IMG/VR virus record: IMGVR_UViG_3300047561_000907 | Coordinates: 1 to 25,975 of that record | Strand: one strand, 5' to 3' | Source of the DNA: a virus | Taxonomy: Duplodnaviria > Caudoviricetes | DNA length: 25,975 nt | Shown here: piece by piece, positions 15,913 to 24,945 of the stretch | Numbering within the stretch: the first letter of the stretch is position 1 | How the letters are laid out: each line of letters begins with the position of its first letter | Position numbers and translations under genes: made by a program | The notes under the pieces: generated by a model | The model's database searches: none | What the model saw: only the letters and a program-made list of their open reading frames with translations | Told to the model about the DNA's origin: nothing

Positions 15913-16061
15913 CCTACGTCCAATGGGGTGAAAGATACTACGCGGTGACTTCCAACGGAGATGTTTTTGATTCTACCGGGAAACTGACCATTATCCCGGA
16001 AGGGCTAAAGAAGGCAATCAAGGAGGTTGGCATTCATGAAGAAGCAAATAGTAACAGTTAG
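15909..16061 (+). CDS. hypothetical protein
   Basis: ATG 15909 overlaps the upstream stop; MTYVQWGERYYAVTSNGDVFDSTG. Confidence 0.5.
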   Translation: MTYVQWGERYYAVTSNGDVFDSTGKLTIIPEGLKKAIKEVGIHEEANSNS

Positions 16062-16680
16062 TTGCCAGTTGCCGGAATGGTTTGAGAAGCATTCGCTCCC
16101 GCGGATTAAGGAGGCATGCGAACGGTGGGACGCAAATCTTGTCGTCATTAAGCCGGAAAAGCCGATCGGGTTGCTAGCTAAGATGTCGCTAGTCGACGCG
16201 GTGCAGAATGCTGACAGAACCCTGTTTATCGACAGCGACGTTCTTATCTCCAGGGAATGCCAGAATCCTTTTGAGCTATTCCCGCGGGGTCACTTCTACG
16301 CTTGCGCAGACGCGCCTCACGGTGACCAGTTGCATTGGGGCCGAGCGAACGAGATGATCCTATCGCAGGCAATGCTCGGATCAATCAAGTGGACTCAAGG
16401 CTACTTCAACACCGGGGTCATGGTGTGCGACAAACAGCATGCAGGGGCCTGGGGCAATTTCGTATACGCACCGTTCGCGTTCCCTGAGCAGACCTTCACC
16501 AACTACCGGGCCAGAATGCTCGGGTACTCCATTCGTTTCCTAAGTTGGGAATGGAACGCAATGGAGATCAATACGCCGAAGGATAAGAAGCAGTCAGACG
16601 GATTCATGCCACACGCAGCCGGGATTTACGGAGACGACCGCGCGAAGTGGATTGAGGAAATGGATAAGGTACTACCATGA
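16036..16680 (+). CDS. GT-A glycosyltransferase, family 8-like
   Basis: AGGAGG RBS at 16021; LFIDSDVLI (DxD), YFNTGVMV, EQTFTNY, WEWNAM and HAAG motifs. Confidence 0.8.
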   Translation: MKKQIVTVSCQLPEWFEKHSLPRIKEACERWDANLVVIKPEKPIGLLAKMSLVDAVQNADRTLFIDSDVLISRECQNPFELFPRGHFYACADAPHGDQLHWGRANEMILSQAMLGSIKWTQGYFNTGVMVCDKQHAGAWGNFVYAPFAFPEQTFTNYRARMLGYSIRFLSWEWNAMEINTPKDKKQSDGFMPHAAGIYGDDRAKWIEEMDKVLP

Positions 16681-17741
16681 GAATATTAACTCTAAAAGAT
16701 CCCATGATGTTGGACGATCGACTCCACCATCCTCACGATTCGATTGTAGTTCCTGACGAGGTCCGCGGGATACCTGGCACACATGCCGACGCGTACACAA
16801 TTCCGTACCGGGTTGGTTGCGCCTCGGGCGGATTCGCGGCCCTGTACCGCGGTGGAGCGATCGGGGATCAGTTCATCGCAATGGGCATCGCCAGAGCAAT
16901 GCAACACTACGAGGGAGACGGAAGGGTTGAGGCTTACGTTCCGCAACGTCATTTGCCGTTGTGGGAAGGATTCGCCGGAGTCAGGGTCATGCCATTAGCT
17001 CCAACCATTGCAACGTGGAAGTCATACAAGGGCCACGTTTGCCTGGACGATATATTGTCAAAGACTGCGCACCTGGACGGAAACGTGTACGACTACGTCT
17101 ACAGATCCTGGGGCGTCGAGGTCGACGATCAGTTTAAGAAGCCTTACGCCAAGCTACTGGACAAGGACCAGAACGAACTTGTTGACGTTGGGTTTCATCC
17201 GGAAGGACCGTTCCTGCTCTACTCAATCAGTGGATCGAGCCTGTGGAAGAGCTACCCAACCTACGAGGCCGGACTGTTTATCAAGTCGTTCCTAAAAGAA
17301 AATAAGGATTGGCAAGTCGTAGCAGTGGGCCACGACGATCCTCCATTATCTATCTCGCACCAGAGGCTTATCAATCTGCAGGGAAGACTACGCAATGTCA
17401 GGACTCTTCTGCACCTAGCTGCGCGTTGCGACATGGCAGTTTGCCCGGAGTCGGCAATCATGCACATGACTGCAATATTCGACGCTCCTACCGTTGGACT
17501 GTACGGACCATACGGACCTGAGCACACGTCGAAATATTACAAGTACGTCAAGCCACTGTTCCCGCAAAACATTTGTCCTCACGCCCCATGCTCGGTGTAC
17601 GAGCAACCGAAGGACAAGTGCAAAGACGCGGTCAACGCAATACAGGGAGAACCCAAATGGTGCAACGTTCTAAAGTCAATCAAGCCAGAAGATATCCTGG
17701 CAAAGACAAAAGAAATCCAGGCAAACCTAAAACAGATCTGA
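16677..17741 (+). CDS. GT-B glycosyltransferase, family 9 (heptosyltransferase-like)
   Basis: GAIGDQF, ESAIMHMTAIFDAPTVGLYGP, C-terminal CPHAPC...C...C..I.PEDI. Confidence 0.8.
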   Translation: MRILTLKDPMMLDDRLHHPHDSIVVPDEVRGIPGTHADAYTIPYRVGCASGGFAALYRGGAIGDQFIAMGIARAMQHYEGDGRVEAYVPQRHLPLWEGFAGVRVMPLAPTIATWKSYKGHVCLDDILSKTAHLDGNVYDYVYRSWGVEVDDQFKKPYAKLLDKDQNELVDVGFHPEGPFLLYSISGSSLWKSYPTYEAGLFIKSFLKENKDWQVVAVGHDDPPLSISHQRLINLQGRLRNVRTLLHLAARCDMAVCPESAIMHMTAIFDAPTVGLYGPYGPEHTSKYYKYVKPLFPQNICPHAPCSVYEQPKDKCKDAVNAIQGEPKWCNVLKSIKPEDILAKTKEIQANLKQI

Positions 17742-17911
17742 TCAGAATCGTTTCTGAGAAGAAAGTTGTTTGCTACGAATTAAATCTTGATGTTGACGAT
17801 GATGTGTACGAATCAATTGTTGAGGCCGGGCGTATCCATATTGCGAACGATAAGGAAGCACTATTCCAGTACGCGCTGAAGACCGCGCTCAAGGAGGTTG
17901 CAAATGGATAA
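17657..17911 (+). CDS. hypothetical protein
   Basis: GGAG 7 nt before ATG 17657; overlaps the last 85 nt of the GT9 gene; globular-looking C-terminal half (YELNLDVDDD...ALFQYAL). Confidence 0.5.
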   Translation: MVQRSKVNQARRYPGKDKRNPGKPKTDLIRIVSEKKVVCYELNLDVDDDVYESIVEAGRIHIANDKEALFQYALKTALKEVANG

Positions 17912-18467
17912 CTTCAAACAAAAGATTCTTACAGCAGTGTGTGAGCCAGACGTGTTGACGCAAGGCCAGTGCAATATGATCCGCGACGACGCTCAGGTCG
18001 TAGGCATGAATAGGTCTCACGTCATGAAGAAGGATGGGACGACCAGGTCTTCCTACACCAGGACATGTTCATCGTGTTGGGTACCATTCGCGGAACATTA
18101 CAAGTGGCTATACGAAGTTGTCAGGTGTGTTTCCATGGACTTGAACGACCAGCACTACAGGCTGGACATTACCGGGATTCAACAGTTGCAGATCTTGCGC
18201 TACAGGCCCGGGCAGTTCTTCCTGCCACACTTTGACTGCTTCGATGGTAGCGACCGCAAGCTAACGATGGTGATCAACCTATCAGATCCATCAGAGTTCC
18301 TTGGCGGAGGGCTCAGGGTTGAGTGCGACTTGCATAATGCGAAGGATGTAAAGAAGCGGGGATCGGCAACAATGTTCCCCACCTACATAAAGCACCAGGC
18401 GCGTCCTGTGTTTTGGGGCTCCAGATGGGTCCTAGTCGCCTGGCTAACCGGGGGTCAGTGGAGATGA
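17904..18467 (+). CDS. 2OG-Fe(II) oxygenase (prolyl-4-hydroxylase/PKHD-like)
   Basis: AAGGAGG RBS; QILRY..GQFF.PH.D, RKLTMVI.LS...F.GG.L, MFP....H...PV..G.R..LV.W. Confidence 0.85.
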   Translation: MDNFKQKILTAVCEPDVLTQGQCNMIRDDAQVVGMNRSHVMKKDGTTRSSYTRTCSSCWVPFAEHYKWLYEVVRCVSMDLNDQHYRLDITGIQQLQILRYRPGQFFLPHFDCFDGSDRKLTMVINLSDPSEFLGGGLRVECDLHNAKDVKKRGSATMFPTYIKHQARPVFWGSRWVLVAWLTGGQWR

Positions 18468-23570: not shown

Positions 23571-23843
23571 ATGAAGTATTACGCTGAAGAAGAAGGTGAA
23601 CTGACGTTCGAGCAGATGGTTCCTGGCAAGTATTATCGGTCCGGGAACGACTACGGTATCTGCGAGATCAATCAATCCGCCAGCAACAGGCCAAAGATCC
23701 TGACCTACCTCAATAGGTGCGGGAGTTGCATAGGTGGCAACGTCCTGCTGTTCGAGGTCGACATGACGGACCGGATGCTCGCCAAGCTCAAGGAGCGCCG
23801 GGACAGGACGATCGGGTTCATCGACGAGATGAGGACCTGGTGA
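23571..23843 (+). CDS. hypothetical protein
   Basis: GGAGG RBS at 23561; ATG 23571 preferred over the track start at 23436. Confidence 0.65.
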   Translation: MKYYAEEEGELTFEQMVPGKYYRSGNDYGICEINQSASNRPKILTYLNRCGSCIGGNVLLFEVDMTDRMLAKLKERRDRTIGFIDEMRTW

Positions 23844-24505
23844 GTTTACGCGCAGATAGTTCAATAGAAGAACTTCCCCTATTCCAAGGGGAGAACGGAG
23901 GTGCGATCCCTACCTCTGCGCTCCAACTTAAATTCCGGTCCATAGGGTCAAAGACGATGAATGAAGTAGTCGTAGCCAACCACTACGCGCACCGGGCCGT
24001 GCCTTGCAACTGGTCGTTCGGATGCTTCCATGGCAGTGAACTGCTGGGAGTAATCTCGTTCGGCAAACCCGCGTCGCCTCATCTATGCAGGGGCATATGC
24101 GGGGCAGAGAATGCGTCCAGGGTCTACGAGTTGAACAGATTGTGGCTCGACGATCGGTGCCCTAAGAACTCTGAGAGCAGATTCATATCCTGGAGCATTC
24201 GAGAGTTAACAAAGTTGCGACCGTACTTGATCCTGGTTAGCTATGCAGATACCGGGGCCGGGCATAACGGAATGATCTACGCAGCCACCAACTGGATTTA
24301 CACCGGACTATCTGACAAGAGATCTTCCGGTGACAAGGTTGTCGGAAACAAGCACAGCAGGCACTCTAGGACAATGGAAGAGGCAGTGATTGTGCCCAGG
24401 ACTAGGAAGCATAGGTTTGTTTACTTTTGTAACCAAGAGGATAGAACTTTACTGAAATGGAATGTAGAGAACTGGAAAGAGTGGAAAGAATGGAGGGAAG
24501 AATGA
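23840..24505 (+). CDS. mom: Mom-family adenine modification (carbamoylmethylation) enzyme, GNAT fold
   Basis: NHY.HR, FG......L.GVI.FG.P, ELNRLW......NSES.FIS, LVSYAD...H.G.IY.A.NW.YTG and K.RFVYF motifs. GTG 23840 is coupled to the upstream TGA. Confidence 0.8.
   Translation: MSLRADSSIEELPLFQGENGGAIPTSALQLKFRSIGSKTMNEVVVANHYAHRAVPCNWSFGCFHGSELLGVISFGKPASPHLCRGICGAENASRVYELNRLWLDDRCPKNSESRFISWSIRELTKLRPYLILVSYADTGAGHNGMIYAATNWIYTGLSDKRSSGDKVVGNKHSRHSRTMEEAVIVPRTRKHRFVYFCNQEDRTLLKWNVENWKEWKEWREE
23850..23925 (+). tRNA. non-canonical tRNA-Gly(TCC)-like element embedded in the mom 5' coding region
   Basis: Acceptor GCGCAGA/TCTGCGC + T discriminator + CCA; T8A9; D-stem GTTC/GAAC; anticodon stem TCCCC/GGGGA with TTCCAA in the loop; T-arm GGAGG-TGCGATC-CCT(A)CC; 76 nt. 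Confidence 0.75.
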
Positions 24506-24705
24506 GTCAATCAATTGAATGTCCTAACTGTAAATGTGAGGTCCCGGTGGCGTTATTCGCGTCCAGGATCGGCAAGGTTACGTCGGAGGCTAAGGCTAAG
24601 GCATCGATCGCTAATGGTAAGAAGGGTGGGGCGCCTAAAGGGAACAGGAATTGGGCCGGGAAAGAGCTCCCGGTGGCATCGTTTCGACCCATCAAACTGG
24701 ACTGA
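24502..24705 (+). CDS. small putative DNA-binding protein (CxxC + TSEAKA.AS..NGKKGG.P motif)
   Basis: GGAGG RBS, ATGA overlap with mom; basic KGG.PKGNRN motif. Confidence 0.65.
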   Translation: MSQSIECPNCKCEVPVALFASRIGKVTSEAKAKASIANGKKGGAPKGNRNWAGKELPVASFRPIKLD

Positions 24706-24945
24706 AACATAGCCCGAAAGGGCTAGAAACAGCTATTTCGCCCTACTCTGTTAAACCCGGGTTCTACACTGTTTCACCATTTCGTTCCCCTTATATATAT
24801 ATAATGGTGAAACAGACCCTGTTAGAGCGGGGAACTAAAGTTCCCCCGCTTCGCTTCGCTAGCGGTACCGCTCCAACCGCGGGGTCTTTTCAGTTTACCA
24901 TATGCCTTTTTGATTCTTACCAGAAAGAATAGGTGAAACATGAAA
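24703..24945. other. palindrome-rich intergenic region, putative replication origin/regulatory region
   Basis: 13-bp inverted repeat 24769-24781/24803-24815 around (TA)n; hairpins at 24710-24725 and 24826-24850; palindrome 24861-24872; several (T)GAAAC motifs. Confidence 0.5.

Follow-up and report, generated by a model that had tools for sequence, protein, structure and literature searches.

Why should a phage gene for a DNA-modifying enzyme carry a tRNA within its coding sequence? The question is raised by a virus record of ~26 kb from a lake phage, which encodes virion, endolysin, primase-helicase and terminase-like genes and is analysed here in full (25,975 nucleotides, referred to as the window). 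Its mom gene contains a tRNA-Gly-like sequence. The passages on Mom chemistry in the recent work on phage Mu report that the enzyme transfers glycine from Gly-tRNA(Gly) to the N6 of adenine, and that the tRNA must end in a ribo-A with a free CCA (PMC13219725). A first-pass annotation of this DNA had named this use of Gly-tRNA(Gly), subject to verification, and was right. In the parts of a study of related Fem transferases that concern EF-Tu, that factor keeps ordinary Gly-tRNA from the transferases (PMC7826273). We consider it probable that mom genes of this kind carry a non-proteogenic glycyl donor tRNA that is excised from the transcript.

The nested element and its gene

The features of the locus, all on the + strand, are as follows.

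23571..23843, + strand, upstream ORF, 90 aa, a putative protein of no assigned function; the TGA stop and the mom GTG start overlap as GTGA
23840..24505, + strand, mom gene, 221 aa, GTG start; residues 5-29 are tRNA-encoded and the Mom GNAT core begins at residue 30
23850..23925, + strand, tRNA-Gly(TCC)-like element, 76 nt, in frame within mom (fold, Rfam score, covariation)
23850..23856, + strand, 5' strand of the 7-bp acceptor stem (G1 C2 G3); partner strand 23915-23921
23859..23873, + strand, D arm, 4 bp, with a 7-nt loop without GG (covariation in 4/4 pairs)
23875..23892, + strand, anticodon arm, stem of 6 bp and loop of 6 nt (canonically 8 nt; covariation in 6/6 pairs, C35/C36 near-fixed)
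23883-23885, + strand, anticodon TCC (sequence)
23897..23914, + strand, T arm with TGC in the loop; A 23912 bulges from the stem between canonical positions 63 and 64 (the bulge recurs in relatives)
23922..23925, + strand, discriminator T73 and encoded CCA (sequence, family conservation)
24502..24705, + strand, downstream ORF, 67 aa, with a CPNC motif; directly behind the upstream ORF in relatives without the mom cassette

The frame that opens at the coupled GTG (23840) runs for 221 codons without a stop, through the element and into the Mom core, as the first-pass annotation had read it. The match to the Pfam Mom family (PF25680) starts at residue 30, immediately past the CCA, with E 8.5e-40 and 137 bits against a curated cut-off of 27.1. 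The product also matches phrog_1384 (E 1.4e-49) and the Mu Mom chain 8bv8 (E 7.9e-18). When aligned to the Mu Mom active site, with the numbering counted by hand, six of seven checked residues are kept (H58, Y59, R111, S124, D149 and Y159). By the same hand count, R151 of Mu, which is reported to be essential, aligns to G139 of the window Mom, and W48 aligns to a Lys. Formation of 6-NcmdA by the window enzyme is therefore presumed, because R151 is not kept even though six of the seven checked catalytic residues are. A start at the first ATG past the tRNA (M40) was considered and is unlikely for the window, as it would lose Mom profile positions 2-11.

The element (GCGCAGA TA GTTC AATAGAA GAAC T TCCCCT ATTCCA AGGGGA GAAC GGAGG TGCGATC CCTACC TCTGCGC T CCA) falls inside the first 30 codons of mom. 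The cloverleaf that had been described there, with its 7-bp acceptor stem, T73, CCA, 4-bp D stem and TCC anticodon, is present in the sequence in every part. It is the minimum-energy fold (-28.4 kcal/mol, z -3.46, with none of 200 shuffles as low) and holds in 140-400 nt of mRNA context with pair probabilities of 0.6-1.0. The Rfam tRNA model gives it 28.7 bits (E 0.0045), narrowly below the gathering score of 29 bits. ARAGORN calls no tRNA at the window element with default settings; at the relaxed setting -ps85, of the kind that the annotation had suggested, the element is called in the locus of the window itself (L035).

The RNA is a deformed tRNA rather than an ordinary one, in ways that the annotation had not mentioned: the window element has a 6-bp anticodon arm and lacks the 7-nt anticodon loop, the D-loop GG, the T-loop TTC (it has TGC) and the unbroken 5-bp T stem of a canonical elongator. 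The tRNA-Gly identity set G1-C72, C2-G71, C35, C36 and U73 is complete.

Several other features of the region were recorded. No Pfam or PHROG family match was found for the 90-aa upstream ORF, and a promoter and terminator scan gave no signal above shuffle level. In the window fold, bases past the CCA sequester the start codon; this was rejected as a general feature, since it shows no conservation across 87 flank pairs. A group of GT8, GT9 and 2OG-Fe(II) oxygenase genes lies side by side at 16027-18467. The segment at 24770-24900, before the terminase-like gene, is non-coding and contains an AT run as well as a number of short inverted repeats; it is possibly an origin or packaging region.

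Selection on the RNA

Does the coding sequence merely happen to fold, or is the RNA itself selected? Among close loci, the element is present in 33 of 34, and synonymous changes come in matched pairs in its D and T stems. A wider set of 43 hand-picked sequences with the window layout has 98.1% of pair cells paired and two-sided changes in 14 of 22 pairs; since about two thirds of the rows were found with a pattern in which the T arm and 3' end were fixed, only the D stem, the anticodon stem and the inner acceptor pairs are free tests. All four D-stem pairs and all six anticodon-stem pairs change two-sidedly. None of 500 shuffles paired as highly, and slid registers reached only 42-52%.

In a clade collected solely by its protein core, 29 of 41 loci carry the element, and a model-fitted alignment of 25 distinct rows has 98.9% pairing. 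Two-sided changes occur in every variable stem, including pairs 11-23 and 50-62, in which both partners are third codon positions; these conservation counts do not equal independent events, and the seed set came partly from a pattern fixing the T arm and CCA. The first-pass annotation had held that homologues without compensatory pairing or a fixed anticodon would speak against its reading; the homologues covary strongly and keep C35/C36 nearly fixed.

The elements are also translated. Of 114 distinct elements that adjoin a Mom core, 113 are stop-free when read as part of Mom, whereas only 16 and 27 are stop-free in the two other frames. An in-frame start stands within 24 nt upstream of G1 in 85 of the 99 5' members (70 with ATG alone, against 17 and 13); shared ancestry among the elements means that both counts overstate independence. 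Other in-frame starts occur within 18 nt past the CCA in 25 of the 99 and inside the tRNA in 52. The tRNA-encoded peptide changes completely with the 74- and 77-nt forms, and with the phase at the 3' end, so that the RNA, rather than the peptide, looks like the constraint. We conclude that the nested element is a selected RNA.

What the element family keeps and loses

We collected 115 distinct candidates, 111 of which passed a length and pairing filter. The 44 that were found through the protein were chosen among relaxed ARAGORN calls that finish in a CCA-like sequence, which makes the CCA count there no test. In these, pairs 1-72, 2-71 and 3-70 are kept in 44 of 44 and U73 in 43; of the 43 with scored loops, all keep C35 and 42 keep C36. 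The GlyRS identity elements that had been pointed out in the window (G1-C72, C2-G71, G3-C70, U73, C35/C36) are thus conserved in the family as well. The bases kept match the tRNA-Gly identity set given in the relevant section of the published account (PMC9976931).

Other parts are altered. Position 34 is free (T 88, A 9, C 5 and G 2 in all 104 scored loops). A bulged T-stem A is present in all 44 protein-found elements and in 67 of 68 distinct detector calls at mom 3' ends, and in none of 13 ordinary tRNA-Gly genes (12 of them in carrier genomes, one in a phage), whose loops are TTC. EF-Tu affinity is set by T-stem pairs 49-65, 50-64 and 51-63, as stated in the EF-Tu portion of PMC7826273, and the bulge of the nested elements interrupts these pairs. 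Individual members depart from the pattern. A 5'-nested element (L234:1211-1283) has U1-A72, C73 and an ACC anticodon, its glycine acceptor marks being changed, and two 3'-nested elements (L232:1966-2040 and L415:962-1036) have an unbulged T stem, the former ending in CTA rather than CCA.

One could suppose that the element is simply an additional translational tRNA, which supplements glycine or suppresses frameshifts through an enlarged loop and merely shares mom's space. TCC is the anticodon in 88 of the 104 scored loops, 71 of the 104 have 8 nt, and default ARAGORN calls some members tRNA-Gly, all of which would suit such a role. Against it, U33 is kept in 74 loops and lost in 30, some anticodons read ACC, nearly every element has the T-stem bulge that ordinary tRNA-Gly lack, and many 3' forms have no D arm. 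Three carrier genomes have tRNA-Gly genes with GCC, TCC and CCC besides the nested copy, a full set, and nearly all occurrences adjoin mom. A role in translation therefore seems very unlikely.

3'-nested and D-armless forms

In a second Mom clade, found by a search with the core only, 77 of 80 loci carry the element at the 3' end of the gene (a model match at the gene end gave 66, a pairing-only detector 74, and the two combined 77). The 68 distinct calls of the pairing-only detector, one of them misplaced, start with GCG in 67 cases and end in TCCA in 63, and these 63 ends are distributed 26/23/14 over the three codon phases. Since TCCA is kept in all three reading phases, it is not explicable by the protein. 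In control windows the detector fires in 71 of 320, with no GCG and no TCCA. Four of the 68 calls end in TCAA or TTTT.

Many of these forms have no D arm. D-armless forms of 67-70 nt make up 49 of the 68 detector calls; their acceptor and T stems covary, and 47 of 53 retain CC in a loop of 5 nt. Examples with an extended anticodon arm and this 5-nt loop lie at the mom 3' ends of L411-L490, at about positions 955-1075. We found no earlier description of the 3'-nested and D-armless forms, which appear to be new here.

Distribution and variation

A protein-blind DNA pattern scan found at least 120 viral loci. Among the matches listed, from pattern and protein searches together, are 150 distinct occurrences: 126 are 5'-nested, 14 are 3'-nested, two lie just upstream of mom, one lies ~500 nt upstream, and seven have flanks without a Mom hit (an ordinary tRNA control accounts for one of the seven, and in four the flank is 300 nt or less). 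In L254 and L239 the element is out of frame or apart from mom. Among the 120 Mom proteins listed as nearest, 96 have the element-encoded peptide at their head.

Many mom genes have no element. A search with the window core gave 80 loci, 26 with a 5' element and 54 without; the element was present in 16 of 16 with core identity above 80% and in 7 of 59 below 50%. A search with the element model over 91 sources (including the 80 core-found loci, deduplicated) was positive in only 13. There were Mom matches in 310 phage records and 22 plasmids, of which Mu was checked for the element: Mu has no nested element, its best model match having E 0.88. A blastn search of the L257 element against GenBank phages gave partial tRNA-Ala matches only. 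Because Mu and many other mom genes do without it, the nested RNA is an accessory to mom.

The element extends to bacteria, where it is present in 22 of 56 Mom loci in genomes mostly titled Chloroflexota. The model, built mostly from phage elements, scores the Chloroflexota elements at 51-86 bits. Three Chloroflexota genomes (G001, G002 and G026) have two or three mom copies each, several with their own element. In one protein (P0081) Mom is fused behind a PF05869 domain, which we take to be of a DNA adenine methylase family.

The mom locus also varies within populations. In the window's own population, 31 loci have the upstream gene; tRNA and mom are both present in 17 and both absent from 14. 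In this polymorphic position, the same GTGA-coupled slot holds other small genes or nothing (L533, L538-L542, L549, L552, L554-L556, L559, L561 and L562). Elements and cores can also be exchanged. In 171 pairs of elements, 74 or more of the 76 bases are identical; in 27 of these pairs the cores are less than 45% identical, which suggests that Mom cores are swapped as cassettes right behind the CCA. Identical 76-nt elements stand ahead of ~30%-identical cores in four comparisons (L026 vs L301, L022 vs L286, L122 vs L311 and L149 vs L288). In a tree of 217 cores (labelled by our own detector, with Mu and truncated loci omitted), presence of the element changes 24 times against 68.5 in shuffles; because of recombination and weak support, we make no claim of ancestry from this tree.

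Near-identical elements ahead of very different cores would be expected of a captured tRNA or attachment site that was retained as a recombination anchor or for its encoded peptide. Decayed relics in several members of one clade point the same way; for example, upstream of the Mom core in L495, L514 and L518-L526 the cloverleaf is lost and the peptide is still recognisable. However, a relic should not show two-sided changes in every variable stem, third-position pairs among them, nor should a retained peptide be wholly different in the 74- and 77-nt forms and across the 3' phases. We regard this origin as an extremely improbable account of the element as it now stands.

A probable glycyl donor within the message

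It is likely that host tRNA-processing enzymes excise the deformed tRNA from some mom transcripts. Release of a tRNA takes a 5' cut and 3' trimming by host enzymes, and here the 5' cut would fall at G1. The excised RNA would then probably be glycylated by the host glycyl-tRNA synthetase, and the charged RNA is predicted to evade EF-Tu and the ribosome, so that Mom could use it as a private glycyl donor for adenine modification in phage DNA. Excision takes off the start codon in the 5' form and the stop codon in the 3' form, and each transcript would thus give either enzyme or donor. We infer the processing, the charging, the escape from EF-Tu and the use by Mom from what the RNA keeps and loses: a private donor is the best reading because the RNA retains both ends that the synthetase reads, loses decoding features and stays linked to mom.

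Counted in favor of this model are the covariation, the kept Gly identity marks, the recurrence of the RNA at mom 3' ends with GCG and TCCA in all phases, the CC of the D-armless forms, the T-stem bulge, the TGC loop, the full tRNA-Gly sets in carriers and the six conserved Mu active-site residues. Counted against it are the lack of an element in Mu and in many relatives, the relics, the TCAA and TTTT ends, and the changes at R151 and W48. No processed form was seen in four RNA data sets, which consist of low-depth contigs and do not bear on ends, strand or level. The interpretation of the locus as enzyme plus donor, offered by the first-pass annotation, thus stands in part: Mom's use of Gly-tRNA and the selection on the RNA support it, whereas Mu Mom uses host tRNAs and has no such element. 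In the assays described for Mu, Mom is active with all three E. coli tRNA-Gly species (PMC13219725).

The main alternative is that the element acts chiefly in cis, as a processing site or as a binding site for Mom or GlyRS that would cap the output of a potentially harmful enzyme, any released RNA being a by-product. The element nearly always overlaps coding sequence, G1 lies 4-13 nt past the ATG in most 5' members, and excision would destroy the message at either position. Mu mom is tightly regulated, according to the portion of PMC7261163 that deals with its control. Unlike a fixed operator, however, the element occurs at either gene end and is sometimes out of frame or apart from mom. Nor is there conservation of pairing between the start region and post-CCA bases, since 46 of 300 partner shuffles are equally stable. 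Furthermore, even D-armless forms retain CC in the anticodon, which RNase P does not require. A role in cis accounts less well for the kept CC and for the indifference to position, and we think it unlikely to be the main function; it may coexist with a donor role. The authors of the Mom work speculate that the acceptor end is the main part of the tRNA that Mom reads (PMC13219725).

A broader form of the donor model is about evenly balanced in our judgment. It holds that these are widespread mobile genes in which one transcript is either a Mom-type message or the precursor of its own ribosome-proof glycyl carrier, D-armless bacterial tRNAs included, with a fixed tRNA anchor and swapped cores. 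If correct, the donor model would account for the supply of tRNA-dependent DNA hypermodification at a time when EF-Tu holds most charged tRNA. The same bases would encode an enzyme and its RNA co-substrate, and the family would be a natural source of ribosome-avoiding, glycine-accepting tRNA bodies. Many of the nested RNAs escape standard tRNA finders.

Comparison with known systems

The nested arrangement has a precedent. Genomic islands at ssrA in Dehalococcoides contain a tRNA-Gly-like 'pseudo-tRNA' embedded in a mom homologue, as described in the main-text passages of McMurdie et al. 2011 (PMC3146451). It is 76 bp long and lies in the first 150 bp of mom, with the anticodon DCC; the window likewise has a 76-nt Gly-like cloverleaf within the first 150 bp of its mom homologue, and our Chloroflexota loci have the same arrangement as the Dehalococcoides islands. 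Those main-text passages propose no function, Mom being then considered a methylation-type enzyme, and (figure S1 aside) phages, 3'-nested or D-armless forms and the T-stem bulge are absent from them. A donor role would give a function to a pseudo-tRNA unexplained since 2011.

Mu Mom (PF25680, PDB 8bv8), as characterized by Silva et al. 2026 (PMC13219725), belongs to the same family as the window Mom. It uses host isoacceptors and has no nested tRNA, whereas the window mom has one; in the window protein the helix-turn-helix-like insertion region is shorter, and R151 and W48 are not kept. Neither a nested or embedded tRNA nor Dehalococcoides is mentioned in the main text and two supplements of that paper. 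We found no literature linking a nested tRNA to Mom's donor in a search that covered sources other than subscription journals, bioRxiv and some other supplements. What is already known, from the passages cited, is the nested tRNA-Gly in Dehalococcoides and Mom's Gly-tRNA chemistry.

A bulged T-stem A also occurs in selC* tRNA-Cys and 8/4 tRNA-Sec of bacteria and phages, in the sections of Mukai et al. that describe these RNAs (PMC5389517). As presented there, these are 8/4 structures, they are not glycine tRNAs and they have no tie to mom. The bulged selC* tRNA works in translation (PMC5389517), so the bulge is no proof of exclusion from the ribosome.

A likeness in kind is to the non-proteogenic S. 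aureus tRNA-Gly species NP1-NP3, the donors for FmhB, FemA and FemB. In the passages of PMC7826273 on these RNAs they too have Gly identity, a TGC-type T loop, a short anticodon loop and an altered T stem. Their partner, like Mom, is a tRNA-dependent GNAT-fold transferase; the likeness is drawn from sequence hallmarks. The staphylococcal RNAs are encoded by free-standing chromosomal genes, have weak T-stem pairs (A49-U65, U50-A64 and A51-U63) and feed peptidoglycan synthesis, whereas the nested elements mostly have G-C, G-C and C-G at these pairs together with the bulge, and the phage element lies inside the enzyme's own gene and would feed DNA modification. By analogy, we suggest that the nested element might work as NP1-NP3 do, though it is not of their lineage. 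What would be new is a donor-type tRNA for a GNAT transferase that is written within the gene of the enzyme it serves.
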